Source: an uncultured Gammaproteobacteria bacterium (lineage in GTDB: Bacteria > Patescibacteriota > Patescibacteriia > Magasanikbacterales > UBA922). Taken from it: a stretch of DNA of 58,896 bases. Positions 2,388-58,544 of this stretch are shown here, in pieces. The notes beneath the pieces are model-generated. The model was not told the origin of the DNA. It saw only the letters and a list, made by a program, of their open reading frames with translations, and searched no databases. Location of the stretch: assembly GCA_964612105.1 (NCBI GenBank), contig CAZTEU010000004.1, forward strand, positions 1 through 58,896, given 5' to 3'. The position numbers and the translations under genes were made by a program. Each line of letters begins with the position of its first letter. Positions within the stretch are counted from its first letter, which is position 1.

Positions 2388-2464
2388 AAAAAAACACCAT
2401 GGTTGGTGTTCTTTTGTTGCTCCCGAACCACGTCCGCAGAGCAATGTTGCACTGGTGGTTCGGG
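2388..2464 (-). terminator. 3' module: CCCGAACCAC...GTGGTTCGGG hairpin plus intrinsic terminator
   Basis: 10-bp perfect stem 2422-2431/2455-2464, then ACACC/GGTGT stem with T7 on the minus strand. Confidence 0.75.
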
Positions 2465-2473
2465 TCCCCTTTC

Positions 2474-2689
2474 TCACGCAGGCGTGACACTTTTGACAGA
2501 GTCAGCTCTAAACACGTACTCGGCACCGTGCCCCCAACGAATCCAAACAGACTGTTTGCCGACACGCATGTCTCCTCTGTATACATCAACCCTTACAGGT
2601 TCTTGTGGTGCGCTTTCTGCTCCTGGAGCGAACTGGAAGACAAGTGTGTCGTATCCCATCATGAGCTCAAAAATCTTTCTGATGTTCAT
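2474..2689 (-). CDS. Small GC-rich hypothetical protein (71 aa)
   Basis: Strong SD CAGGAGGGGGAG before ATG; ends just before the 3' hairpin module. Confidence 0.65.
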   Translation of the reverse strand: MNIRKIFELMMGYDTLVFQFAPGAESAPQEPVRVDVYRGDMRVGKQSVWIRWGHGAEYVFRADSVKSVTPA

Positions 2690-2720
2690 CTACTCCCCCT
2701 CCTGGCTTTGTTTTTTGAGG

Positions 2721-2969
2721 CTATGCCAGAGACATCTCATCAATCTTCCTCGTGTTTTCCTGACGCATAGCATGGAAGCGCATAAGCGCTCTCAAGATGT
2801 CGCCTGTAGATTTGCTCTTGTCTACATCAAAACCAGAGCTTTCGCACATTGCGAGCACAACATTGCGCCGCAAATCCTTGTCCTCTTGAGACTCTTCTGC
2901 ACACAGTCCGCAGTACGGGTTATCCAACAAGGGATCACCTATACAACTACAACGACAAGCTCTACACAT
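2721..2969 (-). CDS. Small Cys-rich (putative Zn-binding) hypothetical protein (82 aa)
   Basis: SD AAAGGAGGG; CxxC...CxxC pattern (CRAC...CGLC). Confidence 0.65.
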   Translation of the reverse strand: MCRACRCSCIGDPLLDNPYCGLCAEESQEDKDLRRNVVLAMCESSGFDVDKSKSTGDILRALMRFHAMRQENTRKIDEMSLA

Positions 2970-3138
2970 GCTTTCCCTCCTTTGGTGATTGGTGAGTACT
3001 TACTAGTATATGATAATAATTAAAAAAACACCATTGCTGGTGAGCCAAGTAAAATAATTATATTACACATTATCTCTCTATTGTAGTAATATATATGTAA
3101 AATTTGAAGTCTGGTGGAAAACCCTAAAATAATTCATC

Positions 3139-4695
3139 ATGAGATCTATATCCAAAAAATTAGCAATTTATATATTTATTGTTGTTAGTTTATCTACATG
3201 GCTCGCATTGTTTTTTGTGCGACCAATAGATATAGGGTCTGGAGACATTGGAAGGCACCTAAAAAACGGAGAGATAATTGTATCATCACTAAAATCCGGA
3301 GAGGGTATACATAATTTATTAAACACAAACTATTATTCATACACTCATACAGAATTTCCTTTTGTTAACCACCATTGGGGTACAGGTGTGGTGCTGTACT
3401 TAGTGTGGTCTGTTGGTGGTTTTGTTGGTTTGCAGGTGTTTGGGTTTTTATTAGCTCTTGCGACTCTTTTGTTCTCCTACAATCTTGCAATAAAAAGATC
3501 CAGTTTGTATGTTGCAACGCCTTTTGTTTTTCTAATCACTCCACTTTTAGCAAACAGGCGTAATATACGTCCAGAACTGTTTAGTTATTTATTCATAGCA
3601 GTTCTTCTCTGGCTGCTGTATAGTTACAAAGAGACAAGAGATAAAAAGTTGCTGTACATAATTCCGTTTTTATTCTTGCTCTGGATTAATCTTCATATTT
3701 ATTTCATATTCGGATTGTTTATCCTGGGAGTTTTCATATTAGATGAAGCAAAGCAGTGGAACAAGAGAGGTTTGGAGGTAAAAAAACTTAGCATGGCACT
3801 TGTTACAAGTTTGTTGCTAATGCTAATAAACCCTTTTGGGATTAAAGCAATAATATATCCCTTCACTGTGTTTGGTAACTACGGAATAGAAGTTAGTGAG
3901 ATTGCTTCTGTAACAAAAGCTAATGCAGTAGTGTTTAGCCAAAGCATAGCAACGACTTTCTATTTGTCACTATTTGTCTTGTTGGTAAGTCTTCTATATC
4001 TCATGATAAGCAAAAGGAAAGAAAGTCTTTTTGTAGACACTGTTTTGGCTATAATATTCTCTGCTCTGGCTTGGATGATAGTAAGAAATATAGCTATGTT
4101 TGCAATTGTTACTCTTCCAATTATTTCTGCAAGTGTGTGTATGCTTGTTAGCAAATTAGAAATATGGGAAAACAAAAATACAAAGTATTCTTTTGTGGCT
4201 ATTTCACTGGTTATTGTATTGGGAATATCCTTCACAAGAATCCCTCATGCCTGGAGTGCAGTTGGGTCCGGTATTACAATAGGTTCACAAGAAGCAGGTG
4301 AGTTTATTAGAGATAATGATATATCTGGACCACTTATTAATGATTTTAACTCCGGTGGGTATGCATCGTGGTATCTTTTTCCAGAACTACAATTGTTTGT
4401 AGATAATCGCCCAGAAGCATTTCCTGCAAATTTCTTTGTAGATGAATATACACCAATGCTTATCGATGAAGACGTGTGGTACAAGGTAGAAGAGAAATAC
4501 AGCCCAAATGTAATTTTATTAGGCTTCGAGGGGGCACCGAAACAGGTTACTTACTTTACTGCCAAAAGAATACAGGATCCGGGTTGGGTTCCTGTGTTTA
4601 TAAACAAAAAACATATTGTACTTGTAAAAAAACACGAGCGTAATGCCCGTGTAATAAATGAATTTGCAATTCCAGACAGTGTGTTTAGCTTCTAG
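3139..4695 (+). CDS. Polytopic membrane protein, probable GT-C fold glycosyltransferase
   Basis: 518 aa, about 12 TM segments; D..H...G, RPELFS, LW.NLH, NPFG and F.D.R motifs typical of this family. Confidence 0.6.
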   Translation: MRSISKKLAIYIFIVVSLSTWLALFFVRPIDIGSGDIGRHLKNGEIIVSSLKSGEGIHNLLNTNYYSYTHTEFPFVNHHWGTGVVLYLVWSVGGFVGLQVFGFLLALATLLFSYNLAIKRSSLYVATPFVFLITPLLANRRNIRPELFSYLFIAVLLWLLYSYKETRDKKLLYIIPFLFLLWINLHIYFIFGLFILGVFILDEAKQWNKRGLEVKKLSMALVTSLLLMLINPFGIKAIIYPFTVFGNYGIEVSEIASVTKANAVVFSQSIATTFYLSLFVLLVSLLYLMISKRKESLFVDTVLAIIFSALAWMIVRNIAMFAIVTLPIISASVCMLVSKLEIWENKNTKYSFVAISLVIVLGISFTRIPHAWSAVGSGITIGSQEAGEFIRDNDISGPLINDFNSGGYASWYLFPELQLFVDNRPEAFPANFFVDEYTPMLIDEDVWYKVEEKYSPNVILLGFEGAPKQVTYFTAKRIQDPGWVPVFINKKHIVLVKKHERNARVINEFAIPDSVFSF

Positions 4696-4700
4696 TCAAA

Positions 4701-5450: not shown

Positions 5451-5502
5451 AATAAAATATTTAGTGTCTTAATAAGATAACTCAAAAATAGAAAGTAGTC
5501 AA

Positions 5503-6576: not shown

Positions 6577-6585
6577 ACAACAAAA

Positions 6586-6867
6586 TTATTTATTCATTTT
6601 TTTGAACAAAAAAAGCAGTTCATCTACTGTATTCTTTTTTCCTTTCTTTAGTCCTTCTGCAACACATCCATGTAGGTGGCAATCCAGCAACAAAATCTCC
6701 ACTTGTTTCATTGCGTTCTTGACTGCGGTGGTCTGTTGGAGAATGTCCATGCAGTACCTATCCTCGTTTACCATGCTTATTACTTTATTAAGATGTCCCC
6801 CAATTGTTTTTAGACGCTTATCTATAGATGCTTTGTTGCAACTGTTCTCACAAGTTTTGTTTTTCAT
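6586..6867 (-). CDS. csoR: CsoR/RcnR family metal-sensing repressor
   Basis: RLKTIGGHL...M...RYCMDILQQ...H...C signature. Confidence 0.88.
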   Translation of the reverse strand: MKNKTCENSCNKASIDKRLKTIGGHLNKVISMVNEDRYCMDILQQTTAVKNAMKQVEILLLDCHLHGCVAEGLKKGKKNTVDELLFLFKKMNK

Positions 6868-28666: not shown

Positions 28667-29773
28667 ATGAAGCGTTTCATTCTACTCATCTGCCTGGCTT
28701 CCATGCTGGGCTGTGGCGGACCACAGCGTGTCCAGCCGGAAGGTTCGGTCGCCAAGACCTCTCCCGTCGAGAAGAAGGTAGACATGGGCTACGACCATGC
28801 CCTGCACCACAACGAGCCAGATGTTCCCAAGCGAAAGCTCAAGAAGCTGACCAGGGATCAGGAGCGGGTGGTTCACAGGATGTACCTGGAACTCGTCCGT
28901 GTGATCAGCGACTACAACCACGAGATCGCAAACTACCAAGCTCTCCTCGACAAGTCGTTGCCTGCTCTGCACAAACACCTCGCAAACATCATGCGTGCAG
29001 AAAGTGTGGCTCGCAAGAAGTGCCCCAGAAAGACCTTCAAGACCTTGTCAGACCATGACCCTCGGCTCAAGGAGTGTCGTATTCTTTGGGCAAGACGGCT
29101 CAGTGCAATCAGAACGTCGGGGGATCAGACAGTCCAGCTGTACGAGCAACTATCCAAGCAGGAGAAGGAGCGAGTCAAGTGGTTCCGTCAGATTCTCATC
29201 TCGGTTTTCAGGATCAAGATGGTCACTGCGGAACACGACGCCGGCAAGCTCGAGAAGAACATCGTTCGCGACATGGTGAAGAAGATCAAAAGGCTTCAGT
29301 CGAGACTTCCTCTTCCCAAAGACATGGACAAGTACGCCCTCTCTGCCTACAAGGCGGTGGAGGCACTCGGAAAGATGCCGGAACACATGTACCTGAGGCC
29401 AGGAACAAAGGACTGGGAATCCAGGAATCTCGACTTCCACACTTCTTACATCGCCGTACAAGGACTGACAGACTGGGGAAGGGTTGGTTTCTTTTCCTCT
29501 CAAGCTGAGAAGATGAGGAAGGCTCGTCTGCAGGCAGAGTTCGATGTGGCGACCTTCCAATCAGATCGCTTTGATCATTTCGTCAGACAGAGTTCGGGGC
29601 GTGTGATCGAGGACATCAAGAAGCTGAGCGGAGAAATCATCAGAAACTACTCTGGTGCCCCAAGAACACAGCGCAAACTCCCGCCTCAAACGAAGAAGCC
29701 GAACGATATTCTCAAGAAGCTCAAGGAGATGAAGAAGCGCCTGAGACGCTACGAGGAACAAGGTCCCAGGTGA
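28667..29773 (+). CDS. GC-rich, basic, helical lipoprotein of unknown function
   Basis: SD AAGGAG; lipobox MLGC; own promoter TTGACA-17-TACAGT at 28535-28563. Confidence 0.8.
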   Translation: MKRFILLICLASMLGCGGPQRVQPEGSVAKTSPVEKKVDMGYDHALHHNEPDVPKRKLKKLTRDQERVVHRMYLELVRVISDYNHEIANYQALLDKSLPALHKHLANIMRAESVARKKCPRKTFKTLSDHDPRLKECRILWARRLSAIRTSGDQTVQLYEQLSKQEKERVKWFRQILISVFRIKMVTAEHDAGKLEKNIVRDMVKKIKRLQSRLPLPKDMDKYALSAYKAVEALGKMPEHMYLRPGTKDWESRNLDFHTSYIAVQGLTDWGRVGFFSSQAEKMRKARLQAEFDVATFQSDRFDHFVRQSSGRVIEDIKKLSGEIIRNYSGAPRTQRKLPPQTKKPNDILKKLKEMKKRLRRYEEQGPR

Positions 29774-29776
29774 CCA

Positions 29777-29836
29777 AACCCCCGTTGACCAAAAAGCAGA
29801 ACCCCTGCGATTTCGGTCACGGGGGTTCTTGCTTTT
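29777..29836 (+). terminator. Terminator with an alternative overlapping hairpin
   Basis: AAAAGCAGAACCCC...GGGGTTCTTGCTTTT competes with AACCCCCG-TGACC...GGTCA-CGGGGGTT. Confidence 0.7.
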
Positions 29837-29854
29837 ATAATGTATTTTTAGAAG

Positions 29855-46930: not shown

Positions 46931-48334
46931 TTATTTATTGTCTTCTTGTTTTTCTTCCTCCACCTTCTCGCCTTCATGACTATGCACGTGTCCCGGCTCG
47001 TGCGAATGATCGCAACAGCCAAGGTCTTTTAGGTTCTTATCTTCCATAATTTGCTCACCTAGTATTTTTGCCTTTAGCCAATCCATAACCTTTCTGTTCT
47101 GCATAGACGTTGCAATAGTATCTCTCACCTCTGGACGAGCTAAGTTGTCTGAATACTCTTTATTATCTTTGTACATTTCTTTTAATGTTTCTAGCTCACG
47201 ATCCAGCTCTTCATCAGCAATAGTTATGTCATTGTCCATGGCAACCTGACGAGAAATTAAAGCAGCTTTTGCTCTTTTCTCTGCTTGTGCACGGAAGTCT
47301 TCGAAGAGTTGCTGTTCAGTTTTTTTAATATCTGCTAGATACTGATCAATAGGAATATTATTCTTATCTAAATCACGTTTTAGCTCATAAAACATCTTCT
47401 GTCTTTCGCTATTAAGAAGAACTTCTGGAATTGGGTCAAACTTTGTCTTTTCAATAAGCTGCTCTAACATTTCTGCCTCAGCAGACTGCATTGCTTTTTG
47501 GTCAGCCTCTTTTAACAAGTTGCTACGCAAAAGCTCACGAAGCTTTTCTACTGATTCCTGTCCTAGTTTTTTTGCAAACTCCTCATCCAGCTCTGGAAGT
47601 TGGCGTTCATAAACATCTTTAATGCTTACTTTGAAATCAACTTTTTTTCCAGCAAGGTGTTTTTGGTAGTGAGTATCAGGAAAAGACAAAGAAAACTCTT
47701 TCTGGTCACCTTTCTTTAGTCCAACAACCTGCTCAGAAAAACCAGGGATGTAGTGTTTTTCACTCAGGTATACCTGATGATCTTTTGCTTGTCCTCCCTC
47801 AAGAGGAACATTGTCTATAAGCATGTCCATGTCTAGAACAACCTTATCTGTGCCTTCTGCTGTCCCGTCTTTTATAATTTCTGTAGCCTGCATTCCACGA
47901 AGCATATCAAAAGTTTCTTCTACTTTTTCATCAGAGACATCAACTTCCTTTTTTTCCACTTTTATTTTATCTAAATTTGGAAGTTTAACAACAGGCATTA
48001 GAGCCACAGTTGCTTTATACACGACATCATTGTCTGGAGCTATTTTTTCTATATTAATTTGAGGCATTCCAAGAGTTTCTAGTTTTTCATCAATAACTGC
48101 TTTGTAGAATGTTTCTTTCACCACATCCTCTACAGCTTCTTGTAGGATGGCCATTTCTCCCAACTCTTTTTTAACTATATCTGCTGGAATTTTCCCCTTC
48201 CTAAAACCTTTTACATTAATTTTTGCAGAAAGCCTATCAGAAGCACTCTCCAGGTGTTTTTTATAATCCTCCGGAGTAACAGTAATAGTTAACTCAGCCT
48301 GAGAATTATCCAAAGTTTTACATGTGTAGTTCAT
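46931..48334 (-). CDS. tig: Trigger factor with His/Cys-rich tail
   Basis: GFRKGKIP ribosome-binding motif; FKBP domain YIPGF; tail GCCDHSHEPGHVHSH. Confidence 0.97.
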   Translation of the reverse strand: MNYTCKTLDNSQAELTITVTPEDYKKHLESASDRLSAKINVKGFRKGKIPADIVKKELGEMAILQEAVEDVVKETFYKAVIDEKLETLGMPQINIEKIAPDNDVVYKATVALMPVVKLPNLDKIKVEKKEVDVSDEKVEETFDMLRGMQATEIIKDGTAEGTDKVVLDMDMLIDNVPLEGGQAKDHQVYLSEKHYIPGFSEQVVGLKKGDQKEFSLSFPDTHYQKHLAGKKVDFKVSIKDVYERQLPELDEEFAKKLGQESVEKLRELLRSNLLKEADQKAMQSAEAEMLEQLIEKTKFDPIPEVLLNSERQKMFYELKRDLDKNNIPIDQYLADIKKTEQQLFEDFRAQAEKRAKAALISRQVAMDNDITIADEELDRELETLKEMYKDNKEYSDNLARPEVRDTIATSMQNRKVMDWLKAKILGEQIMEDKNLKDLGCCDHSHEPGHVHSHEGEKVEEEKQEDNK

Positions 48335-48483
48335 AAAGATATATTAATTCTGCGCAAGTATAGCTAAATATTACAAATAAGTCAAGTATGAGGATACGAA
48401 ATTTTGCTAAAAATAGTGAAATTTAATATGCCTAGGCCTCTGTTGTGGTATAATATTTATGCTAATAATTATTATAAAATAGT

Positions 48484-48765
48484 ATGGAAAGAAGAAGAGG
48501 GTATACCCCACCAAGAGAAGAAAGACCAAAATCGTCGCTTGGGGACTTGTTACGCGAGGTTGAATTAGATGAGGAACAAGAGAGCTCTCCAATAGTGGAC
48601 AGTGACGGCAATTTTATACTACCAGACAATACAGAAAATCTACCCACTCTTGTAATGGAAGATGCAGACCCTGTGGAGGTTGGGCAAGTAGACGTGGATG
48701 AGAATGCGGAAACTGTGTCTGCAGATGTGTTGGAAGAAGAAACAAAACAAGTTGATACAATATAA
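48484..48765 (+). CDS. Acidic hypothetical protein
   Basis: 93-aa Glu/Asp-rich ORF after a TGGTATAAT -10. Confidence 0.55.
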   Translation: MERRRGYTPPREERPKSSLGDLLREVELDEEQESSPIVDSDGNFILPDNTENLPTLVMEDADPVEVGQVDVDENAETVSADVLEEETKQVDTI

Positions 48766-48772
48766 CAAAAAT

Positions 48773-49279
48773 ATGGTATATCGTAGAAGTAGAAAAAATA
48801 CACCAGCAGACGGCGCAACTAGAACAGGTGTTAGTGAAGCCGCAAGAAAAAAGACAGCAATAGAAATAGAAGCAGCTCCTGTAACAACTGCAGAGTTTGA
48901 GGCATATCAGGAAGAGCTTGCTTTGCAAAGAGGGGAAAGGGAGAGTGACGCGCACAAGCAACTAAGGGCGCGGGCAGAACAGAGAGAGCAAGAAAGAAGA
49001 GAAAAAGAAAGAGGAGAGAGGAGAGAGCGTGATGAGACAAGTTTGGCACAAGACAAGCTAAAAGACCTAGAAGTAGATTCGGACACGCTGAGGGAAATAA
49101 ACACAAGCAGAGGCGATGTGACCATACCTCTTGCTACATTAGAAGCGCGAGTACAAGACGCTGAGGGTTTTATTGGTAATGCTACACTAGACTCTGGAGA
49201 CGAAAACCTTTCTAGGCTGGTAGGCGCTGTAGACAATGCTAAAATTCTATTAGAAAACATAAAACGCAACGTTGCTTAA
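48773..49279 (+). CDS. Charged coiled-coil hypothetical protein
   Basis: Start trimmed to MVYRRS; E/R-rich helix. Confidence 0.6.
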   Translation: MVYRRSRKNTPADGATRTGVSEAARKKTAIEIEAAPVTTAEFEAYQEELALQRGERESDAHKQLRARAEQREQERREKERGERRERDETSLAQDKLKDLEVDSDTLREINTSRGDVTIPLATLEARVQDAEGFIGNATLDSGDENLSRLVGAVDNAKILLENIKRNVA

Positions 49280-49288
49280 TAAAAACAT

Positions 49289-49744
49289 ATGACACCAGAA
49301 CAAATATCTCAGACTGGCATTAATCCAATGGAGAGTCCAATCAAAAAAATAGTCAAAGAAGAAAACAGAATCGTAGTTCCTGTTGAGGCGCAAGGAAAAG
49401 AGGTTCTTAAATCTGCAGAGTCAGAACTGCTTTATAAGATTGATAATTTTGAGGCAAAAATAGCAATGTCAGCCTCCGAGGTTATGGCGATTACAGATCC
49501 AGAAGAAGCAAAACAAAGAGGGATAGACGTAAATGAAAGTAGAGAAACAGCACTAAGTGCGGCGGTAGCGATAAAGAATAGCGCGGATTCTTGGAAAATG
49601 GAGCTCGGAGAGCTTCTTCTTCATGAGGGCATCAAGAACAAAAAATACGAAGAGCGCCTATTAGATTTGGATAGATATATAGACAAAATAGTAAAGAAGG
49701 CTGACCAGGTTTTGGTTACTGTTCCAGACGGAACAATAAACTAA
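49289..49744 (+). CDS. Hypothetical protein
   Basis: 151-aa ORF in an apparent operon with the two preceding ORFs. Confidence 0.6.
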   Translation: MTPEQISQTGINPMESPIKKIVKEENRIVVPVEAQGKEVLKSAESELLYKIDNFEAKIAMSASEVMAITDPEEAKQRGIDVNESRETALSAAVAIKNSADSWKMELGELLLHEGIKNKKYEERLLDLDRYIDKIVKKADQVLVTVPDGTIN

Positions 49745-49799
49745 AAACCCCTTTTTTGCTAGTTGACTTCGTACATAATATTAGGCATACTAACAACAT

Positions 49800-51179
49800 A
49801 TGCGTTACTTCGCGTATAAAATACTGTTAGCAATCCTCCGTCTGCTTGTATATGTCAAACGGGGGCTTTTTTGGCTTTGGGAAAGATCACAGCCGGGCGT
49901 TTTTTTAGTTGCAAAAATATACAACAACACAATTGGTTTTTGGTTATATAAGCTGTGGTACACGGCACATAGACGAATTGGAAAATGGCTACACCCTTGG
50001 AGGAATAGCTTTTTTGACATGCTTGGAAAAAGAAACACCCTGCAAATTACAGCTTTGGTTGCTTCTTTTATTATAATGTTTCCTCATACCAAGCTGTATT
50101 CTCAAGATACGATTGAAATTCCTGGAAGAAAAACTTTATTATACGAACTTATTGGTCCCGGTGAGCAGGATTTTGATATCGAAGAAATAGAAATAGATGT
50201 TACACAGCTAGCTCAACAAGATTCTAGGGTTTGGACAGAAGGGGCAGTTATTAATCAGAATGCAGGGGGAGTAAACCAGGACGAAGTTATTGTAGTACCT
50301 CAAGAAATATCTAGTATTAGTGCAGGAGGAACAGCACTTTCTAAGCCTACAATAATTTCTGGAGATGCTGTAGCTACAATCCCAGCAGAGTCTGGAGAGG
50401 TTTCTACAAAACGGTCAAAAATCGTTGAGTATGAGGTGCGGTCAGGCGACACAATTGGAGCAATCGCAGAAAGGTACGGAATTAGTGTAGAAACAATTCT
50501 ATGGTCCAACAACCTATCTGTACGTTCATATATTAGACCAGGCGACACACTAAAAATACTACCATCTACAGGTGTTCTTCATAAGGTAAAAAGAGGAGAA
50601 ACAGTTTCCAGGATTGCAAAACTATATGACGCGGAAGCCAGTGACATAATAGAAAAAAATCGTCTACAAAACGATGGTTCAGACATTGTAATAGGAGAGG
50701 AGCTTATCGTTCCAGGAGGAAGAAAGGCAACTCCTAGAGCAACATACACAACAAGACGATATACTTCCCTCTCTGGTCTTTCCGCCCCTCCTCCTTCTGC
50801 GACCGCACCAGCAGGTTCTGGATATATTTGGCCAACAAATGTGCGTAGGCTTACACAGTATTATGGATGGAGACATACCGGGTTAGATATTGCTGGACCT
50901 ACTGGCTCTCCCCTATATGCGTCTCGCTCTGGTAGGGTAGTTAAATCACAGTGTGGTTGGAATGGGGGATATGGGTGTTATATTATTATAGACCATGGTG
51001 GGGGAATACAAACTTTGTATGCTCACAACTCTCGCTTATATGTTAGTGTTGGTCAGCAAGTAAATCAGGGGCAGACAATTGCACTTATGGGGTCCACGGG
51101 AAGATCCACAGGTCCGCACATTCACTTCGAGGTGCGCGTAAATGGAAAAAGACAAAACCCACTGAGATACGTCAGGTAA
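49800..51179 (+). CDS. LysM-M23 peptidoglycan endopeptidase
   Basis: Two LysM repeats; HTGLD, YAH, GSTGRSTGPHIHFE. Confidence 0.96.
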   Translation: MRYFAYKILLAILRLLVYVKRGLFWLWERSQPGVFLVAKIYNNTIGFWLYKLWYTAHRRIGKWLHPWRNSFFDMLGKRNTLQITALVASFIIMFPHTKLYSQDTIEIPGRKTLLYELIGPGEQDFDIEEIEIDVTQLAQQDSRVWTEGAVINQNAGGVNQDEVIVVPQEISSISAGGTALSKPTIISGDAVATIPAESGEVSTKRSKIVEYEVRSGDTIGAIAERYGISVETILWSNNLSVRSYIRPGDTLKILPSTGVLHKVKRGETVSRIAKLYDAEASDIIEKNRLQNDGSDIVIGEELIVPGGRKATPRATYTTRRYTSLSGLSAPPPSATAPAGSGYIWPTNVRRLTQYYGWRHTGLDIAGPTGSPLYASRSGRVVKSQCGWNGGYGCYIIIDHGGGIQTLYAHNSRLYVSVGQQVNQGQTIALMGSTGRSTGPHIHFEVRVNGKRQNPLRYVR

Positions 51180-51197
51180 AAACATAAATAGACAAAC

Positions 51198-51263
51198 AAA
51201 AACAGCTTTTAACAAAGCTGTTTTTGAGTACGCCCGATCTTTCAAAGCTCAGGCGACCCCCTT
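51198..51263 (-). terminator. 3' module: CGCCTGA...TCGGGCG hairpin plus bidirectional terminator
   Basis: Minus strand AAGGGGGT-CGCCTGA...TCGGGCG-TACTC-AAAAACAGCTTTGTTAAAAGCTGTTTTT. Confidence 0.7.
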
Positions 51264-51298
51264 ACTTGCTGCGTAGTGTGTCTGGTGGACAGAAAAGG

Positions 51299-51964
51299 TC
51301 ACTCGTTCGTAATCACCCTGTCCAAAACCTCGACGTATGCACCAAAGTGCACATCAGAGCCCCTAAGAAGGAGCTGTGCATAGGGTTTTGAGTCACCAAC
51401 CGGCTCTGCGATGATCTTTTTTGCACAGTCCACACAAATCACCGTGTCGATACTGTCTCGTCTACGGAACAAGACAGCCCCTCTCATTGAGAGACCGCGA
51501 TGAGGATGTCTGCATGCGTTGATGCCGTTTGCGCAAACACCTCTTTGGCTGGTCAGCACATCGAACATTCTCTCAATCATGGTTACAGAGACTGCTTTGG
51601 TTTGGATTGGCCTCAGAACGAGCCCTTTCCAGTCGAAACTGGCTGGCATTGCGTCTTCTGTCTCTACGTGTATCAGGTCAATCCACTCGTTCCCCTCATC
51701 ATCAGAATCGACAGTGACACGAAACATGCCGCTTGCGCCCTCCGGAAGATCCTGAGGGAAGGGAAGGTCTGGGTGGATGAAGTGGAAGGTGCGCCCGTCC
51801 CCCTCAACAGAGATACAACTTCCAACTGCCTCGTCCTCTCCGAAGCGGTTGTGTTGATAAAGGACGCCAACAGGGTACGGAGTTTTGAACAGCCCTGCGA
51901 GGTTTGCTGGTGTCAGAAGTGTGAACGGGTGACTACCGTCACTAAAGAGCTTGTTGCATGCCAC
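51299..51964 (-). CDS. GC-rich hypothetical protein with C-terminal Cys cluster
   Basis: SD AAGGAGGG with GTG start; promoter TTGACT-17-TAAGCT (52015-52043); C...C.H...CxxC. Confidence 0.75.
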   Translation of the reverse strand: MACNKLFSDGSHPFTLLTPANLAGLFKTPYPVGVLYQHNRFGEDEAVGSCISVEGDGRTFHFIHPDLPFPQDLPEGASGMFRVTVDSDDEGNEWIDLIHVETEDAMPASFDWKGLVLRPIQTKAVSVTMIERMFDVLTSQRGVCANGINACRHPHRGLSMRGAVLFRRRDSIDTVICVDCAKKIIAEPVGDSKPYAQLLLRGSDVHFGAYVEVLDRVITNE

Positions 51965-52093
51965 GGAACCCTCCTTGTGGTCTTATTTGTTTTTGTGTCG
52001 CTAGAACCAGACAAAGCTTAACAAGGTTCTATCGTCCAGTCAACAACAATTAATTAAAAAACCCTCCTTGCGGAGGATTTTCTGTGTGGTGTG

Positions 52094-52528
52094 TTATTTT
52101 TTCTTTATATCACACCAGTTCCAACATTCATTATCTCGCATCCATTGCCACTGTCCGCCACCAAGCATGGTTATGGCGAAAGTACCACCCAAGAGAGCTA
52201 TAACTAATTCCGCCTGAGCGAAACCTCCCTTTAGGTGAACGGTCAAAACAGCAATGACCATGATAATGAAGAGGACTTTTGCTGCAAAGCGAACCCAGAT
52301 TCCAAGGATTACAGCTAGACCACCAAGAAACTCAGAAAGAGCTACAAGGTATGCCCAGAAAGCAGCCGCAGGGAAACTCATTGAAGAGAAAAACCCAATT
52401 GTAGCATCCATGTTGGTTAGTTTTCCCCATCCGTGATAGAGAAAAATCACACCAACAGCCAAGCGAAGTACAAAAAGTCCCCACTTCTCCATGCTAGCTG
52501 GGTCACAGCAACCAGAAAGTTTCTTCAT
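52094..52528 (-). CDS. DoxX family protein
   Basis: LRLAVGVIFLYHGWGKL, EFLGGL...LG, H...G, GGG. Confidence 0.92.
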   Translation of the reverse strand: MKKLSGCCDPASMEKWGLFVLRLAVGVIFLYHGWGKLTNMDATIGFFSSMSFPAAAFWAYLVALSEFLGGLAVILGIWVRFAAKVLFIIMVIAVLTVHLKGGFAQAELVIALLGGTFAITMLGGGQWQWMRDNECWNWCDIKKK

Positions 52529-52559
52529 AGACCTGAATTAAGAATAAATAAATTAAAAA

Positions 52560-53795
52560 CTAGTCACGAGGGTCGTGCATGTCTATTATATACCTAAAGC
52601 CAAGAGCGTGCAAAGTCCAATCAATAACTATTTTTATTTTTCTTATAATACCTGGAAGAAAAAACAGGTAAGCTGTGCGCCTAATCCACCAAGCTATTCT
52701 TCCGAAAAAGATTATACGACCAATAATAGCAACACCATACCAATCCCCGACAGGAATCAGTGTTCCTCGTGATTTAAACCTAAAACTTTTACACTTCTTC
52801 CCTTTTATCTTTTTTACAATATTTCTTGCAACATATTTTCCTTCTTTATGAGCAGCTTCGCCTAGTTGAGGGGCAACAAGTCCGGATTTCTGATCATGAA
52901 AAAGCACAATATCTCCAACAGCATACAAGCTCTCTGCTTTTTCATGCACAAGACAGTCTGTGACAGGCACACGACCTCTTTCTGTATACCCCTTTGGAAG
53001 AAAACTGTCTGCTATGTTAAGAAAACCACCACACCAAACAGTAATATCGCTGTGTAGTTTTATATCATTATTTAATATAACATCAGACTCTGTTATCTTT
53101 TTTGCACTGCTGTTATTTTGTATATGAACACCCTGCTTTTCTAGTCTTTCAGAAACCTTCCTTCTTACAACCAAAGGCATGTTTTTTAATATTGTCTCTC
53201 CAGACTCAATAATATTTATATGTAGACGTTTTTCTTTGTACAGTTTTTTAATATCTGAACGAAACATGTGACTTAGTTGTCCAGCAACTTCTATGCCTGT
53301 AAAACCTCCCCCGACAATAGTTATATGTATATCTTCTTTTGTTGGGCTCTCAAGACACTCCACAACAGCTTCCTGCAGTGCAATTGCGCTTTCCAAATCA
53401 CGCACATGATACGAGTGTTCTTTTGCACCTGGGATGTTGTAGTAATTTGTTTTGCTCCCTAGGGCTAGCACGCAATACTTGTATAAAAAAACACCACGAT
53501 TCGTCAACACCTTCCTGTTTTTTGGATCGATGTTTTTTACCGTAGCTTTTACAAATTTATGTTTTGTCTTATAAACCAAGCCTCTAAGAGGTATTGCACA
53601 GTGCTGAGGCTCTATCGCCCCGGAAGCTACCTCATGCAACATTGGTGTGAAAGTGAAATAGTTGTGTTGGTCTATTAATGTAATTGTTTTTTTTATTCTC
53701 TTTCGCCTAAACAGCTTCGCAAGAGTACGAAAAGTTTCATAACCACCAATCCCAGCCCCAAGGATTAGGACATCTGTATGAAAGTCTTTTTTCAT
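52560..53795 (-). CDS. Type II NADH dehydrogenase-like FAD oxidoreductase
   Basis: ILGAGIGG, FTPMLHEVASG, IVGGGFTGIEVAG, YAVGD. Confidence 0.9.
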   Translation of the reverse strand: MKKDFHTDVLILGAGIGGYETFRTLAKLFRRKRIKKTITLIDQHNYFTFTPMLHEVASGAIEPQHCAIPLRGLVYKTKHKFVKATVKNIDPKNRKVLTNRGVFLYKYCVLALGSKTNYYNIPGAKEHSYHVRDLESAIALQEAVVECLESPTKEDIHITIVGGGFTGIEVAGQLSHMFRSDIKKLYKEKRLHINIIESGETILKNMPLVVRRKVSERLEKQGVHIQNNSSAKKITESDVILNNDIKLHSDITVWCGGFLNIADSFLPKGYTERGRVPVTDCLVHEKAESLYAVGDIVLFHDQKSGLVAPQLGEAAHKEGKYVARNIVKKIKGKKCKSFRFKSRGTLIPVGDWYGVAIIGRIIFFGRIAWWIRRTAYLFFLPGIIRKIKIVIDWTLHALGFRYIIDMHDPRD

Positions 53796-53796
53796 A

Positions 53797-54222
53797 CTAT
53801 TTTTTTGCTTTGCTCGACGCCCCCAAACTTCTCAACATTCTTTTTATGCTAGCTAAATCTTTTTGCATAGCCTGTGCTTCTCTTTCTATCTTGCGGTTTA
53901 CAGCATAATCATATCTTGCCTCTATCCTATCTCGCTCCGTCTGCCTGTTTTGGCTCATTAAAATAATTGGAGCCTGGAACGCAGCAAGACAGGACAGTGC
54001 AAGATTGAGAAGAATAAAAGGATATGGATCCCAATGACTCACCCACGCATATACATTAAGAGACATCCAAACAAGAAGAAAAGCAAAAAACAATGTCAAG
54101 AATTTCCAACTTCCAAGAAAGTTTGTGAGGACATCAGAAGCACGCTGAGAGATGTTTAGCTTTCCTCTGTGGGAAATCACCGGGTGATCTTTTAGTTCTT
54201 TGAGAGAGTATTGTTTTTTCAT
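53797..54222 (-). CDS. DUF1003 membrane protein
   Basis: GSW.F, DPYPFILLNL.LS..AA.QAPIILMSQNRQ. Confidence 0.93.
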   Translation of the reverse strand: MKKQYSLKELKDHPVISHRGKLNISQRASDVLTNFLGSWKFLTLFFAFLLVWMSLNVYAWVSHWDPYPFILLNLALSCLAAFQAPIILMSQNRQTERDRIEARYDYAVNRKIEREAQAMQKDLASIKRMLRSLGASSKAKK

Positions 54223-54286
54223 ATGCTAAAATTATACCATGCTTTGGGTTGCCAGAGAAGCATATACGTATTACAATGCAGACACT

Positions 54287-55252
54287 ATGATCTTATTCCT
54301 TCACGGTAAGGACACGTTTCGTTCTCGCCAACAACTTAAAAGAATAAAAGAAAAGTTCAAAAGCGACAGAGATCCGCAGGGTATCAATGTTTCGACTATC
54401 GTTGCAAATAGTCACGAACCAAGTGAAATATTGACAGAGATTCTTTCTGCTCCGTTTCTTTCCGAGAAGCGTATGGTTGTAATAGAAAAGCTTCTTACAA
54501 GTAAACACAAGGAGTTAATGAAGACGGTTTTGGACAGAATAAACGAAGACTCAATTCCTCAAGACACAATATTGGTTTTTTGGGAGGGAGGAGAGTTACC
54601 TAAAACAAAAAATGGAAAAGCGCTTTTAGAAAGACTAAAAAAAGAAAAATTCGCACAGCTCTTTGAAGAACTTAAGGGTATTAAACTGGGTGCCTGGATT
54701 ACTCAAGAAATAAAAGAGAGAGGGGGAGAAATATCTCCAGAAGCTGTACAGTACCTAGCAACACACATTGCAGACACTTGGCAGATGAGTTCAATAATAG
54801 ATCAACTAATTGCGTATAGTGGAGAAGAGCAGGTAACGAAGAAAGAGGCGCAAGTGTTTGCTCCAGAAAAAGTAGATGATAATATTTTCAATCTTGTAGA
54901 TGCAATAGTTGCAGGGCAGACAAAAAAAGTTTTTGCTATGCTACAAGAACAGTATAGGTTAGGAAAAGATGCTGGATATATCCTAGCAATGTTAATAAGG
55001 CAGTTTCGTATATTATTAGAACTAAGAGACTTATTTGATCGTGACGAGCTGGGGAATAGTGGAGCAGTGGCTAAAGAATTAGGACTACACCCGTTTGTTG
55101 TAAAAAAAACATTGCCAATGGTAAAAAGACTCTCATATGAAGAACTAAGGAAGGCGTATGAACAACTCTTAGAAATAGACACCAAAACAAAAACTGGCCA
55201 AGCTGACCAGTCATTGTTAATTGATGTTTTTGTTGGACGACAGTCTTTGTAG
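54287..55252 (+). CDS. holA: DNA polymerase III delta subunit
   Basis: LFLHG.D.F, PFLSEKRMVVI, NIFNLVDAI, LHPFVVKK, D..TKTG; adjacent to rpsT. Confidence 0.93.
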   Translation: MILFLHGKDTFRSRQQLKRIKEKFKSDRDPQGINVSTIVANSHEPSEILTEILSAPFLSEKRMVVIEKLLTSKHKELMKTVLDRINEDSIPQDTILVFWEGGELPKTKNGKALLERLKKEKFAQLFEELKGIKLGAWITQEIKERGGEISPEAVQYLATHIADTWQMSSIIDQLIAYSGEEQVTKKEAQVFAPEKVDDNIFNLVDAIVAGQTKKVFAMLQEQYRLGKDAGYILAMLIRQFRILLELRDLFDRDELGNSGAVAKELGLHPFVVKKTLPMVKRLSYEELRKAYEQLLEIDTKTKTGQADQSLLIDVFVGRQSL

Positions 55253-55256
55253 TAAT

Positions 55257-55517
55257 TTACTTACCCGCTTTCCTTGCTTGAGCTACTAGGCGTGACAATT
55301 TGCGAGAAGCGGTATTTTTTTTGATAATACCTTTCTTTGCTGCTTTATCAAGCTTCTTTTGAGCAAGACGCAACTCTTCTTTTACGTCTTTTCCAGCAAT
55401 AATACCCTTACGAGCTGTTTTTACTGCTGTCTTGTAAGCATTTTTAACTACTTTATTCCTCAAAGCCTTCTTTTCTGCTTGACGAAGCGCTTTTTTAGCT
55501 GATTTTAGATTTGGCAT
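55257..55517 (-). CDS. rpsT: 30S ribosomal protein S20
   Basis: MPNLKSAKKALRQ...LDKAAKKGII.KN.ASR..SRL. Confidence 0.97.
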   Translation of the reverse strand: MPNLKSAKKALRQAEKKALRNKVVKNAYKTAVKTARKGIIAGKDVKEELRLAQKKLDKAAKKGIIKKNTASRKLSRLVAQARKAGK

Positions 55518-55614
55518 AATGATTATATGTTTACCTTGAGAGCGCAAGGTGGTAAGAGTATATACAAAAGAGTGGAAATTGTCAATATGTACCAATAATT
55601 TACTAATTTTAGCA

Positions 55615-56026
55615 AAATAAAAAGGCGACGTACGCCCTAAGATAATTTCTGGCGAGTCGCCTTTATATCCTAGGGAACAGGTAAGTGCAGAACTATGTTC
55701 TGCAATACTATGATTTCGCTAGGATAAACCCACCTTCCGTTCCATGGTGTAGATTCTCGATGGATCAGCGCGAAGCATGAGCCACATATAGTGAGAAAGC
55801 ACCGTTTTCCTGTTCGCTTCGAAGTTTTTGCATTTATTTTTGTTTTGGTAGGTTTTTGCGGGGAGCTGCCGAGAAGTGGCGCTCAACCCTTACCCAAGGC
55901 CCCAGCACGTATAATAAACATGCTATAAAGTGAACAGGAGAGTGGGAATAGAATTGGTGGGTAGTCATGTTGCTTACGATAACTCGTAGGCAACTGACCA
56001 ATATGTAATGAGCGAATCACTTACCT
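55615..56026 (-). ncRNA. Candidate large structured RNA (about 410 nt) or structured small-peptide mRNA
   Basis: TTGACA-17-TATTAT promoter (56031-56059); 5'-end/3'-region 9-bp complementarity; many stems; terminator at 55615-55664. Confidence 0.55.
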
Positions 56027-56126
56027 ATATATAATACCACATTTTTTCGGTTTTGTCAATATTAGGGGTTTTTTGGCTAATTTTAGCTGCAAAACAGCCT
56101 TTTTTAGTAATTTTTTTGTATAGATT

Positions 56127-56264
56127 TGTGTATACAAACACAGAAAAAGTGGATAAATGTGGAAAAGTTATCCACAATTTGGCTAACCTACCCACAGAGT
56201 TATCCACAATGTATAGAGTAGTGTATACAAATAGACGCAATATTTGTGGATTTTCAGTGGAAAA
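56127..56264. promoter_or_regulatory. Second DnaA-box cluster
   Basis: Perfect TTATCCACA at 56168 and 56200; near-consensus boxes at 56127, 56148, 56158, 56188, 56245 and 56256. Confidence 0.8.
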
Positions 56265-56286
56265 CATGATTATTTTCTGTGAAAAC

Positions 56287-56363
56287 AAAAAATAGCCAAT
56301 ATTTGGCTACTTTTCTCCTCCCCCGACCCCGTATGTGTTGTACAAGGTCGGAGAAAACCCCTT
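56287..56363 (-). repeat. Duplicated 3' module, copy 1
   Basis: 56287-56328 matches 56904-56945 at 41 of 42 nt; CTCCGACC...GGTCGGGG hairpin plus TAGCCA/TGGCTA terminator. Confidence 0.85.
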
Positions 56364-56371
56364 GAAAAGAG

Positions 56372-56584
56372 CTATTTGTTGAGCCTGCTACACTTCTGAC
56401 AGAAGAAGAGGGCTTTTTGCCCTTCATCAGTGTACACCGATGTGACTGACAAATATGTGCCCCCACAGCCGACATGTCCGCATCTGTTTCCCTTCAGAAA
56501 CTCAGGTATGGACGAGAAGATGACAGGAGGGGGCTGCGGCAGGTCTTTTGGCGCTCTTGGTCCGTTCGAAACTTCGTTTACCAT
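56372..56584 (-). CDS. Small Zn-ribbon-like protein, paralog 1
   Basis: SD CAGGAG; CGHVGC...TDEG.KAL.FCQKC. Confidence 0.75.
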   Translation of the reverse strand: MVNEVSNGPRAPKDLPQPPPVIFSSIPEFLKGNRCGHVGCGGTYLSVTSVYTDEGQKALFFCQKCSRLNK

Positions 56585-56602
56585 GACTTCTCCTGTGTTC
56601 GT

Positions 56603-56806
56603 TCAGTTGGAGTAGGATCCGCATCGTCTGCAGAAGGAAAGTGATCGTGGGCCGTGGTCTGTCTCCACGACACGCACTTCCAATACACGGTTGTGGCAAC
56701 CGGTTTCGCCACACTCTCTCCTGCCACCAAACTTCCTGAGTCTTTTGACAAGAGAAAGCTTGAGCACTCTGCTTTCTGGAATCTTCTTCGCTGTGGACTG
56801 GCTCAC
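56603..56806 (-). CDS. Small Zn-ribbon-like protein, paralog 2
   Basis: SD GGAGGAG with GTG start; CGETGC...TDHG.RSL.FCRRC; promoter TTGACT-17-TATATT. Confidence 0.72.
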   Translation of the reverse strand: MSQSTAKKIPESRVLKLSLVKRLRKFGGRRECGETGCHNRVLEVRVVETDHGPRSLSFCRRCGSYSN

Positions 56807-56903
56807 GACTCCTCCCCACCCAAAAGGGCGTTAGCGTTATAAAATAGAACCTAAATTAATATATAGCACACACCCCAAATAGTCAATGGTTGTTTAATTA
56901 ATA

Positions 56904-56976
56904 AAAAAATAGCCAATATTTGGCTACTTTTCTCCTCCTCCGACCAGTACTGTGTACATGGTCGGAGAACACTCCA
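56904..56976 (-). repeat. Duplicated 3' module, copy 2
   Basis: CTCCGACCA...TGGTCGGAG stem plus a terminator identical to copy 1. Confidence 0.85.
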
Positions 56977-56981
56977 AAAGA

Positions 56982-57197
56982 TCATCTGTTGTACCTCTTG
57001 CAGTCAACACAGAAAGGAAGAGCTTTTGCTCCTACGTCTGTGAGGACAATGCTGGGCACAAGATTGGGGCCACCACACTCCTTATGGCCACATCTTCTGC
57101 CAATAAGGTAGTTTGGAAGACTGCTAAGAACAACTGGTCGCACTTTTTTTGGGACAAACCCGCCAAACCTGAGCTTTTCTACAGATTTCTTGCCCAC
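56982..57197 (-). CDS. Small Zn-ribbon-like protein, paralog 3
   Basis: SD GGAGGG with GTG start; CGHKEC...TDVG.KAL.FCVDC. Confidence 0.75.
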   Translation of the reverse strand: MGKKSVEKLRFGGFVPKKVRPVVLSSLPNYLIGRRCGHKECGGPNLVPSIVLTDVGAKALPFCVDCKRYNR

Positions 57198-57370
57198 GTT
57201 TCCCTCCAGAGCAAAGGTGTTGTAATCTCATGCCTGCCTTACTTCGTTCTATATTAAAAAAATACAGCAACACTGTTCTTTTGTCAATTAGAGTAGAGAA
57301 GGTTGACAAAAAGTCCAAAATATTGCTAAGGTCTTGTTGCCAAAAGAAAAACAAACAAGGAGGAAAGAAG

Positions 57371-58438
57371 ATGAGCATACGAGCATATGTTCTCAACACA
57401 GGTGGGACACTCGGTATGGTCGGAAAACCTCTCCGCCCCGCCAAATCCGCCGACGAACTGCTCGAGGGAATCAAAATCCCCCAAGGCATCACTCTCACGC
57501 TCGAGGACTTCCCGCTCCGGCAGGACTCGACCAATATCAACCACAGAGATCGTGTGGAGATGGGGCGTCTGGTGCAGACGAACTACGACTCCCACGATGC
57601 TTTCATCTTGCTTCATGGGACGGACAGCTTGTCGGAGACGTGTGCGTTTCTGTCCATGTCGCTCAACATATCCCTGCAGAAACCTCTGTTCGTAATTGGT
57701 GCGCAGGTGTCCAAAGGAAAAGCTGGGTCCGACGTGCCAATGCAAATTGCCAACTCCCTGCGTGTCGCGAAAGCATTTGTACGCAATGAAGTTGTTGGTG
57801 TGTACACTGTGTGTGTCGGTGCGGTACTGGACGGTTCTCGTGTGCGTAAGCGCAACGATTCGGACTTCAACGCATTCCACACGCCCGGTCGGTATCCCAT
57901 CGCCCAGGCATGGCCACACGTCCTGATTATGCCGAATGCGAGGAAGTTGGATGTACGCAGGTCTGTACTTGGACTCAATCTTGAAGACAGATTCGAGACA
58001 GACGTGGTAACCATCAAGGTGACCGCGGACACTCCGCCGTACGTCCTGACATCTCTCATTGCGTATGGTGAGATTAAGGGAGTGATCATCGAGTGCATGG
58101 GTGCGGGTAACATTCCAAATCGCAAGTGGGGGTCTGGCGAAAAAGCCACGTCATGGATTCATGCAATCCAGATGGCAACAGAAGCCGGGGTTCATGTCGG
58201 CATTCTGTCCCCGTTCGAGGACGGGCGGGTCAACCTGGATCGTTACGAGCTCGGCGCAGAAGCCAAGAGAGCAGGAGCGCTTAGTCTCGAGAGCCTAACC
58301 CCTGCCATGGCCGACGCCAAGTTCCGCATGGCGATTGCTCGTCATCCGAAGAATCCAGACAGGATTCAGAAGTTTCTCTCAACAGATCTGGTCGGTGAAC
58401 TTCTGCCCGGTGTCGAGGACGAAGAAGGCGACGAGTAG
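57371..58438 (+). CDS. L-asparaginase-family protein (type I-like), GC-rich
   Basis: NTGGTLGM, DST, HGTDS, GAQ, R.RK...AF, G.GN; SD AAGGAGG; promoter TTGACA-18-TAAGGT. Confidence 0.9.
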   Translation: MSIRAYVLNTGGTLGMVGKPLRPAKSADELLEGIKIPQGITLTLEDFPLRQDSTNINHRDRVEMGRLVQTNYDSHDAFILLHGTDSLSETCAFLSMSLNISLQKPLFVIGAQVSKGKAGSDVPMQIANSLRVAKAFVRNEVVGVYTVCVGAVLDGSRVRKRNDSDFNAFHTPGRYPIAQAWPHVLIMPNARKLDVRRSVLGLNLEDRFETDVVTIKVTADTPPYVLTSLIAYGEIKGVIIECMGAGNIPNRKWGSGEKATSWIHAIQMATEAGVHVGILSPFEDGRVNLDRYELGAEAKRAGALSLESLTPAMADAKFRMAIARHPKNPDRIQKFLSTDLVGELLPGVEDEEGDE

Positions 58439-58445
58439 TAGCAAC

Positions 58446-58544
58446 AAAGGAGAACAAACTCCGAACCACAAATGTGGTGTCCGCACGGACAACGCACTGG
58501 GAGGTTCGGGGACATCAAAAGAGCACCTATAAAGGTGTTTTTTT
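58446..58544 (+). terminator. 3' module: CTCCGAACC...GGTTCGGGG hairpin plus terminator
   Basis: AAAGGAGA tract, stem 58459-58467/58503-58511, then AAAAGAGCACC...GGTGTTTTTTT. Confidence 0.75.

Follow-up and report, generated by a model that had tools for sequence, protein, structure and literature searches.

Several described systems place a palindrome or stem-loop at the 3′ ends of genes or mRNAs. In integrons, the attC sites of gene cassettes are imperfect palindromes 3′ of unrelated, compositionally foreign genes, with a conserved outer stem—carrying the inverse core RYYYAAC and the core GTTRRRY at its base—and a variable center; attC families are similar within a genus, and neighboring cassettes can carry near-identical sites. 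Phage morons are independent transcription units with their own promoter, a factor-independent terminator, and a deviating base composition. With respect to mRNA stability, STAB-SD is a 5′ stabilizer of the Bacillus thuringiensis cryIIIA mRNA, and the stem-loops of 3′ retroregulators and repetitive extragenic palindromes (REPs) also act as stabilizers. [quoted passage not shown] The present analysis concerns a 58,896-base stretch of DNA (the window) at the start of contig C4 (C4:1–58896) of a Patescibacteria genome, G000 (944,782 bases in 8 contigs, C1–C8; 97.8% complete; GC 0.365–0.401 per contig), in which an earlier note had described five copies of a 3′ module, consisting of a purine tract, a GC-rich hairpin, and a terminator, behind GC-rich genes. 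The components of this module are of known kinds: stem-loop stabilizers, intrinsic terminators, morons, and palindromic cassette ends. Their combination appears to be new, namely restriction to one compositional class of genes, a Shine–Dalgarno (SD)-like tract in an SD-poor host, and sequence families at the level of the genus; no description of the module was found in the literature, supplementary files aside. The explanation preferred here, tentatively and at somewhat less than an even chance, is that of a 3′-end module family of moron-like GC-rich accessory cassettes, in which an mRNA 3′-end element doubles as a recombination patch.

For counting, the module was defined as an SD-like tract at most 70 nt past a stop codon and, starting at most 14 nt on, a GC-rich hairpin with perfect pairing over 6 bp or more, of which 4 or more are G:C, and open reading frames (ORFs) were classed by GC content at third codon positions (GC3) as high (≥0.5), intermediate (0.38–0.5), or low (<0.38). 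In G000, a module follows 28 of the 103 high-GC3 ORFs, none of the 50 intermediate ones, and two of the 783 low-GC3 ORFs; mononucleotide-shuffled flanks gave 0, 3, and 2 of the 103 high-GC3 and 1, 1, and 1 of the 783 low-GC3 ORFs. The result was replicated in the same-genus genome G001 (first 400 kb of 1.23 Mb; 15 of 58 high, 6 of 54 intermediate, and 0 of 317 low; shuffles 0–1). Among 32 loci of other Patescibacteria and DPANN, GC-rich genomes included, none of 94 high-GC3 ORFs and none of 140 with GC3 below 0.5 carried a module, and GC-richness alone therefore does not yield it. Thus, the shared, non-random 3′ module that the earlier note had proposed behind GC-rich, SD-positive genes was confirmed. 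The SD-like tract alone occurs in 38 of 103 high-GC3 flanks (8.6 expected; maximum 12 in 20 shuffles), and its reverse complement in 16 of 103. The extended motif CAACAAGGRG stands out in G001, and GC-rich genes of four further genera in the family are likewise followed by modules of this build.

All five copies in the window (Table 1) are present as described, and share one layout: a stop codon, purine tract, GC-rich hairpin, short spacer, and A-tract/stem/T-run terminator. RNAfold predicted two adjacent hairpins—the module hairpin and the terminator—in each of them, with minimum free energies of −31 to −43.8 kcal/mol and fold z-scores of −4.38 to −7.65, and none of 200 shuffles folded as well for any copy. 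The purine tract was predicted to be unpaired in modules A, B, and E. Some details of the earlier description needed adjusting. Its general plan of an AAGGRG tract and a CCGA..TCGG stem holds, except that copy E has only GGAG and copy C has CCTGA..TCGGG; and its spacing of 6–7 nt depends on where the stem is drawn, the spacer to the terminator measuring 5–6 nt in A, B, and C and about 2–3 nt in D and E, where the predicted stem extends. The upstream genes are indeed mostly non-homologous—the proteins encoded upstream of the 28 modules represent about 18 unrelated families genome-wide—but D and E follow paralogs, leaving at most four independent instances in the window. The bare string CCGA-N20–50-TCGG-N4–12-AAAA is not above chance (three matches, compared with a mean of 0.75; 11 of 100 shuffles reach three), and significance rests on structure and context rather than on this string. 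A chance origin of the architecture is ruled out by the ORF-anchored counts, their replication in G001, the zero in other lineages, and the fold z-scores.

Table 1. Modules of the window and the GC-rich genes belonging to them, with one GC-rich gene of another 3′ style in the last row (arms are given 5′/3′ in transcript sense)
Feature	Position	Strand	Tract and stem arms, or genes	Spacer, terminator, and scores, or remarks
Module A	2388..2473	−	Tract GAAAGGGGA 2473–2465; arms CCCGAACCAC 2464–2455 / GTGGTTCGGG 2431–2422	Spacer AGCAAC; terminator AAAAGAACACC..GGTGTTTTTTT at 2415–2388; fold z −4.65; covariance model R1 50.7 bits
Two-gene GC-rich cassette of module A	2474..2969	−	ORFs 2721–2969 (82 aa) and 2474–2689 (71 aa)	
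Module C	51198..51263	−	AAGGGGG 51263–51257; arms CGCCTGA 51255–51249 / TCGGGCG 51237–51231	Spacer TACTC; terminator AAAAACAGC..GCTGTTTTT; fold z −4.38; R1 27 bits
GC-rich 221-aa ORF of module C	51299..51964	−		SD, promoter-like hexamers
Module D	56287..56363	−	AAGGGG 56363–56358; hairpin core CTCCGACC 56353–56346 / GGTCGGGG 56328–56321	Terminator AAAAGTAGCCAAATATTGGCTATTTTTT; fold z −7.65
GC-rich small Cys-rich genes of module D	56372..56806	−	56603–56806 (67 aa) and 56372–56584 (70 aa)	
Module E	56904..56976	−	GGAG 56975–56972; arms CTCCGACC 56967–56960 / GGTCGGAG 56945–56938	Terminator identical to that of module D; fold z −6.65
71-aa Cys-rich gene of module E	56982..57197	−		Paralog of 56372–56584
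GC-rich asparaginase-family gene of module B	57368..58438	+	ATG 57368	SD AAGGAGG ahead of the ATG
Module B	58446..58544	+	Tract AAAGGAGA 58446–58453; arms CTCCGAACC 58459–58467 / GGTTCGGGG 58503–58511, inner hairpin nested	Spacer ACATC; terminator AAAAGAGCACC..GGTGTTTTTTT at 58517–58544; fold z −6.57
GC-rich lipoprotein-like gene	28667..29840	+	ATG 28667, stop 29773	TTGACA-type promoter and SD (by eye)

The second hairpin of all five copies is an intrinsic terminator (stem-loop plus U-run) of the textbook kind that is also found on native genes. The host-type AACACC..GGTGTTTTTTT terminator has 30 matches in G000 and also sits right after the stops of AT-rich genes, there without the extra hairpin, as the earlier note had observed. 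At such native genes (e.g., C7:54275, C5:83522, and C4:27533), host-type terminators often start 0–5 nt past the stop, that is, within the footprint of the terminating ribosome. Native genes lack the first hairpin, which in the five copies, unlike an intrinsic or tandem terminator, has no U-run and stands behind a conserved SD-like tract. Elsewhere the GC hairpin has a U-rich tail of its own: a run of four or more Ts lies within 15 nt of the first hairpin in 7 of the 28 modules. No start codon (ATG, GTG, or TTG) was seen at initiation distance after AAGGRG in A, B, and the other copies inspected by eye, which rules out a short ORF started from the SD-like tract in these copies. Known RNA families were also dismissed: an Rfam scan of the whole window returned only two tRNAs above threshold, E-value scans gave at best 22.5 bits (module A) and 19.9 bits (module B) against thresholds of 47 and 66.5, and the Rfam comparison suggested earlier thus yielded no family at or above the gathering threshold.

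More detailed comparisons showed that the hairpin sequence varies widely among modules, CCGA..TCGG marking one subfamily only. Relatives of module B in G001 are 74–80% identical across about 100 nt and lie behind other GC-rich genes; the GC-rich genes of the window have no DNA match in G001, and its native genes match there at 66–72% DNA identity. The five closest copies share the outer stem, inner extension, and apical hairpin, with the AGG-G tract invariant among them. A covariance model built from these five (R1) matched 18 sites in G000 and 22 in G001; of 29 other relatives, 19 gave weaker matches. Twelve of the 18 matches in G000 carry both hairpins, and all 12 lie behind DNA of 0.42–0.62 GC; the remaining six are terminator-only (five behind DNA of 0.36–0.41 GC and one behind 0.56), and equally frequent matching behind housekeeping genes did not occur. 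In an alignment of the 40 matches—which is model-fitted and hence leans toward structure, and which includes some reverse-strand terminator matches—9 of 9 outer-stem (P1) pairs change on both sides, and 94% of cells pair, compared with 49–55% with the partners slid (0 of 500 shuffles reach the values observed for both measures). This agrees with the earlier statement that pairing is kept despite sequence change, and suggests that structure rather than sequence is kept in the module hairpin, and no more. A cleaner case is found within one subfamily, in which CACCCTGCTCAGC/GCTGGGCAGGGTG and CATCCTACCTAGT/ACTGGGTAGGATG differ by three double changes.

The strand that folds was examined with hairpins found by symmetric scoring, with G·T and A·C admitted equally and with flank composition balanced. 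The 291 stem pairs of the 28 hairpins comprised 266 Watson–Crick, 21 G·T, and 4 A·C pairs. The predominance of G·T over A·C on the sense strand gives a clear direction, in that the coding-sense strand, and not the bottom strand, folds; this is in keeping with an RNA element and speaks against folding of the bottom strand as in attC. An asymmetry between a C-rich 5′ arm and a G-rich 3′ arm was only mild (101 C and 85 G in the 5′ arms) and was dropped. A hok-like 5′–3′ fold-back was likewise rejected, as pairing of the SD-like tract with its own 5′ untranslated region (UTR) averaged −10.69 kcal/mol in 28 cassettes, compared with −10.64 kcal/mol with the 5′ UTRs of others.

These results bear on an alternative in which the module is a DNA recombination site, attC-like or Xer/dif-like, at which a tyrosine recombinase moves the cassettes, with the RNA hairpin as a by-product. 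The distribution resembles that of chromosomal-integron attC families, with genus-specific similar palindromes behind unrelated, compositionally foreign genes and near-identical modules on adjacent cassettes, sharply limited from the SD-like tract to the T-run, and the outer stem is again conserved around a variable center. A terminator-like palindrome, CACCAGCAATGGTG plus a T-run, is located at 3020–3040, upstream of cassette A, with no gene on that strand to terminate, so that this cassette is bracketed by two similar AACACC-type palindromes. Furthermore, G000 contains four AT-rich tyrosine recombinase genes, three of them near contig ends and three scanned against NCBIfam. One of these, a 270-aa protein (C8:9776–10588, minus strand), resembles integron integrases: it passes only the XerA/integron-integrase model (232.5 bits; cut-off 220), scoring 147.5 on NF011946 (cut-off 435) and, in two stretches with the middle part of the model missing, 214.3 on TIGR02249 (cut-off 265). 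However, no integron integrase was found above cut-off, and no cassette array flanks this gene. In addition to folding on the other strand, the modules differ from attC sites in having no visible R/L boxes or extrahelical bases and in combining an SD-like tract and a separate terminator in one unit. Their stems differ widely by subfamily: CCGAAC/GTTCGG departs from the attC consensus at the fourth base, and the CATCCTACC.., GACGATC, and CCCCGTCCAGT.. subfamilies have no AAC/GTT core. Rather than forming promoterless tandem arrays, individual cassettes are scattered between native genes and appear, from TTGACA-N17-TATAAT-like hexamers recognized by eye, to have their own promoters and SDs. The reminiscence of attC in the earlier note therefore does not extend to membership, given the unconserved hairpin sequence, the sense-strand G·T pairs, and the missing integrase. 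The dif/pdif modules of Acinetobacter plasmids are similar as discrete gene modules between short palindromic recombinase-type sites, but here two-palindrome bracketing is clear only for some cassettes and an XerC/XerD half-site pattern is not evident from the analysis of the modules. Nor was a cassette-less form encountered: contigs of four DNA runs over 48000–58896 contain no joint removing a cassette—a weak test, since nearly the same strain is present throughout—and their breaks sit at repeated terminators and reflect assembly. No RNA run with this DNA was listed for positions 55900–58896 of the window. A dedicated recombination site is an unlikely candidate.

Several signs of copying of modules at the DNA level were observed. 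Two adjacent genes of contig C7 without protein (BLAST) similarity are followed by stretches that align over 101 nt, with identity beginning at the AGGAGA tract and continuing for about 67 nt. Behind two paralogs with only 36–42% protein identity, the printed alignment shows base-for-base identity over about 55 nt, beginning at AAGGAG and reaching a little beyond the hairpin, and the terminators that follow differ. Just past the window, at C4:65500–66810, three mini-cassettes form a tandem array, in each of which a small Cys-rich (CxxC) ORF is led by a TTGACA-type promoter and an SD and followed by a module; two of these modules are identical over 64 nt, with the purine tract and the T-run as limits. 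Among ORF-anchored modules, two of four adjacent pairs are at least 0.89 identical, compared with two of 492 non-adjacent pairs that reach at least 0.8. Such local identity behind diverged or unrelated genes indicates that the module behaves as a discrete unit, duplicated or homogenized locally. Cassette insertion at a resident module, tandem duplication, and gene conversion are possible routes. The GC-rich islands occupy different intergenic places in G000 and G001, and a search of the synteny between these genomes for an exact empty site gave no clean filled/empty pair. Runs of a 9–10-nt unit like AAAGCCTTTA/AAGGCCTTT flank a GC-rich aldehyde-dehydrogenase island (G001:C1:247200–247330 and 248990–249190; L025), and similar runs follow another module, downstream of G001:C1:991209.

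Other mobile elements were considered and set aside. No reverse transcriptase (PF00078) was found in the 97.8%-complete genome, ruling out a 3′ tag borne by a retroelement (retron, diversity-generating retroelement, or group II intron). A REP or bacterial interspersed mosaic element, or an IS200/IS605 end, is ruled out by the absence of a match to the Y1 (HUH) transposase/RAYT family (PF01797) in the same genome and by the unconserved palindrome sequence. A phage origin is disfavored, as viral contigs gave 0 matches to two module patterns; the spacer-plus-terminator pattern had one, uninformative match in metagenome contigs.

The modules belong to one of two sharply separated gene classes of the host. 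GC3 of the 978 ORFs of G000, called by a greedy longest-ORF procedure, is bimodal, with a main mode at 0.25–0.30 and a second spread across 0.45–0.84. A 5-mer SD precedes 1% of 755 low-GC3 ORFs and 27% of 97 high-GC3 ORFs: the host is SD-poor, and its GC-rich genes are SD-led. An AT-rich core almost without SD use therefore coexists with roughly 100–130 GC-rich, SD-led accessory ORFs, about a quarter of which end in the common lineage-specific 3′ module. This accessory class includes the asparaginase of module B, genes without a detected relative and, by N-terminal sequence only, nucleotide-salvage enzymes and many lipoprotein-like proteins with Cys-rich repeats. Its members are scattered among native genes singly or in twos and threes, and reading by eye assigns to each GC-rich gene or gene pair a TTGACA/TATAAT-like promoter of its own and, within a GC-rich 5′ UTR, a strong SD. 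These cassettes look like phage morons, apparently being promoter–gene–terminator units of foreign composition set between resident genes, and differ in that the regions inspected here showed no prophage context and in that a lineage-specific shared 3′ module is not a described property of morons.

In another alternative, the modules are passive baggage, that is, the donors' own terminators or 3′ UTRs carried in with transferred genes and having no role in the host. The GC-rich stretch spans the 5′ UTR to the hairpin, with the host-type AT-rich terminator coming after it. Four further Patescibacteria genomes, AT-rich as well, also carry the asparaginase gene as a GC-rich island (L028, L030, L031, and L051; GC of the gene 0.61–0.65, of the flanks 0.34–0.45), and in two of them AAGGAG and a structure follow its stop. 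According to a published survey (PMC12455944), most gene transfers into Patescibacteria come from other Patescibacteria; a term search of that survey for terminators, hairpins, integrons, and cassettes gave no match. However, baggage is improbable in view of the zero among 94 high-GC3 ORFs elsewhere in Patescibacteria and DPANN, the base-for-base identity of modules next to coding sequences that are diverged or unrelated, the occurrence of one module subfamily behind different genes in two species, and the inclusion in the cargo of a gene without any detected relative (221 aa). As to the composition itself, GC-biased gene conversion of often-recombining cassettes could be an alternative to GC-rich donors.

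Returning to the 3′-end element of moron-like cassettes, the five sites would be members of a lineage-specific module family on GC-rich, SD-led cassettes in an AT-rich, SD-poor genome of the Patescibacteria type, with the module acting in the sense transcript. A search of G000 by motif located a 16S-like 3′ end, ..GGATCACCTCCTTTCT, containing CCTCC, at the end of contig C5 (an earlier motif search for the 16S 3′ end had come up empty, and the Rfam small-subunit rRNA model gave no match in G000 or G001), and the anti-SD therefore appears to be retained in the host 16S rRNA. The AAGGRG tract is the one module feature with an obvious reader in the cell, namely this retained anti-SD, which the unpaired (C)AACAAGGRG tract would match. 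In the proposed scheme, the tract would be followed by a GC-rich stem-loop whose structure rather than sequence is kept, and transcription would end at the U-rich tail of the GC stem or, as in the five window copies, at a second, bidirectional host-type AACACC/GGTGTT terminator 5–12 nt on. By analogy with STAB-SD, a ribosome or 30S subunit might dock on the tract, and the stem-loop together with the docked particle would make the 3′ ends of GC-rich foreign mRNAs stable and resistant to exonucleases. In the DNA, the similarity of the modules would offer a patch at which cassettes are duplicated, inserted, or homogenized. Among the roles that the earlier note had listed, stability or processing is the most plausible, and no observation favors a tag for export or packaging. 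The likeness to STAB-SD lies in an SD-like tract without a start codon that is complementary to the 3′ end of the host's own 16S rRNA (CCTCC); the module tract, however, lies after the stop and its stabilizing effect is presumed, whereas that of STAB-SD has been measured. Similarly, the stem-loops of retroregulators and REPs are, like that of the module, stable structures at the mRNA 3′ end that would bar exonucleases, but REPs are high-copy and conserved in sequence, and the module joins an SD-like tract to the stem-loop and is confined to GC-rich accessory genes.

Several points weigh against this explanation. No precedent for ribosome docking on a 3′ SD-like tract was found in the literature, and the known STAB-SD element is located in the 5′ UTR. 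The module as strictly defined follows only 27% of high-GC3 ORFs, and many other GC-rich genes close with a hairpin and a TCATTGTTTTTAT-like tail, and some have no SD-like tract. Where modules are base-for-base identical although their genes have diverged, this fits recent copying as much as selection for RNA function. Paralogous modules enter the G·T excess repeatedly, and this excess does not separate RNA from single-stranded DNA of the sense strand. In addition, the promoter calls are hexamers picked by eye, and the greedy ORF calls, not being those of a gene finder, contain some wrong starts and small genes.

The exposed tract raises the further possibility that the module acts in trans on translation, as a 3′-UTR-derived small RNA or as a decoy for the ribosome or anti-SD. 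Its anatomy, in which a hairpin and an intrinsic terminator come after a conserved unpaired tract, matches that of 3′-UTR-derived small RNAs; across species, the tract is as conserved as the stem. In the CCGA subfamily, moreover, the stem itself pairs CUCC with GGAG/GGGG. This role is nevertheless quite improbable: neither CsrA (PF02599) nor Hfq (PF17209) gave a match in the 97.8%-complete genome, which rules out an RNA bound by either protein, no Rfam family matches, and there is no sign of an internal promoter or of processing that would release a small RNA. Furthermore, the seed is SD-like rather than anti-SD-like, making ordinary mRNA targets unlikely. An attenuator is highly improbable; in that case a ribosome positioned near the stop or on the SD-like tract would open the first hairpin, whose 3′ arm would pair with the 5′ arm of the terminator and so give read-through. 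One subfamily (C1:171.5k, C2:24.1k, and C5:78.9k) has a 3′ arm, ..GGATGA, that can pair with a terminator 5′ arm, TCATCC, but A, B, and most other modules show no such complementarity by eye, the first hairpin (9–13 bp, GC-rich) is far stronger than any alternative, and a second terminator is missing from many modules. Explanations beyond those named here retain a small share of the probability.

A broader view, which is doubtful at present, is that of a new cassette system of this Patescibacteria family, in which foreign or fast-evolving ORFs are kept in self-contained promoter–SD–ORF–module units and the module is both an RNA expression element and a DNA site of capture and exchange. Such a module would allow GC-rich, SD-dependent messages to be expressed and to survive where native genes skip the SD. 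It would also be where capture and duplication of cassettes and their exchange between species take place, making it a functional analog of attC that follows another strand logic and involves no integron integrase. More generally, if it is functional, the module would provide a way into the expression and shuffling of acquired genes in such cells, a practical marker for accessory cassettes in related genomes, and possibly a ready-made 3′ expression part; if it is a recombination site, it would represent a cassette system outside the integron paradigm.

With respect to the genes served by the modules (Table 1), both ORFs of cassette A are preceded by an AGGAGG-type SD and belong to no Pfam family. 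For the 221-aa ORF of module C, a word-seeded search of 5.8 billion proteins returned no relative. Promoter-like TTGACT..TATATA hexamers were recognized by eye at about 56885–56855, ahead of the module D genes, and the 71-aa protein of module E is 53% identical to the 70-aa protein of module D across 51 aa. The nearest relatives of the asparaginase are Patescibacteria and DPANN proteins with 55–69% identity, besides one at 96% (P0002), and the family is common to Patescibacteria and DPANN archaea. The lipoprotein-like gene at 28667 ends in a GC hairpin with a TTCTTGCTTTTAT tail (about 29800–29840) and lacks the SD-like tract, representing another 3′ style. This second style, in which a GC hairpin leads directly into a TCATTGTTTTTAT-like tail, also occurs in other Patescibacteria (L030 and L051), and a CATTTGTTTATCAAC-like tail is common to the large lipoprotein genes of G000. 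Finally, a 5′ UTR hairpin is common to one paralog family (C1:171585–172406, C2:24303–24776, and C6:12143–12643); in it, CTTCCTCTT faces GAGGAG, and the hairpin may sequester an SD.

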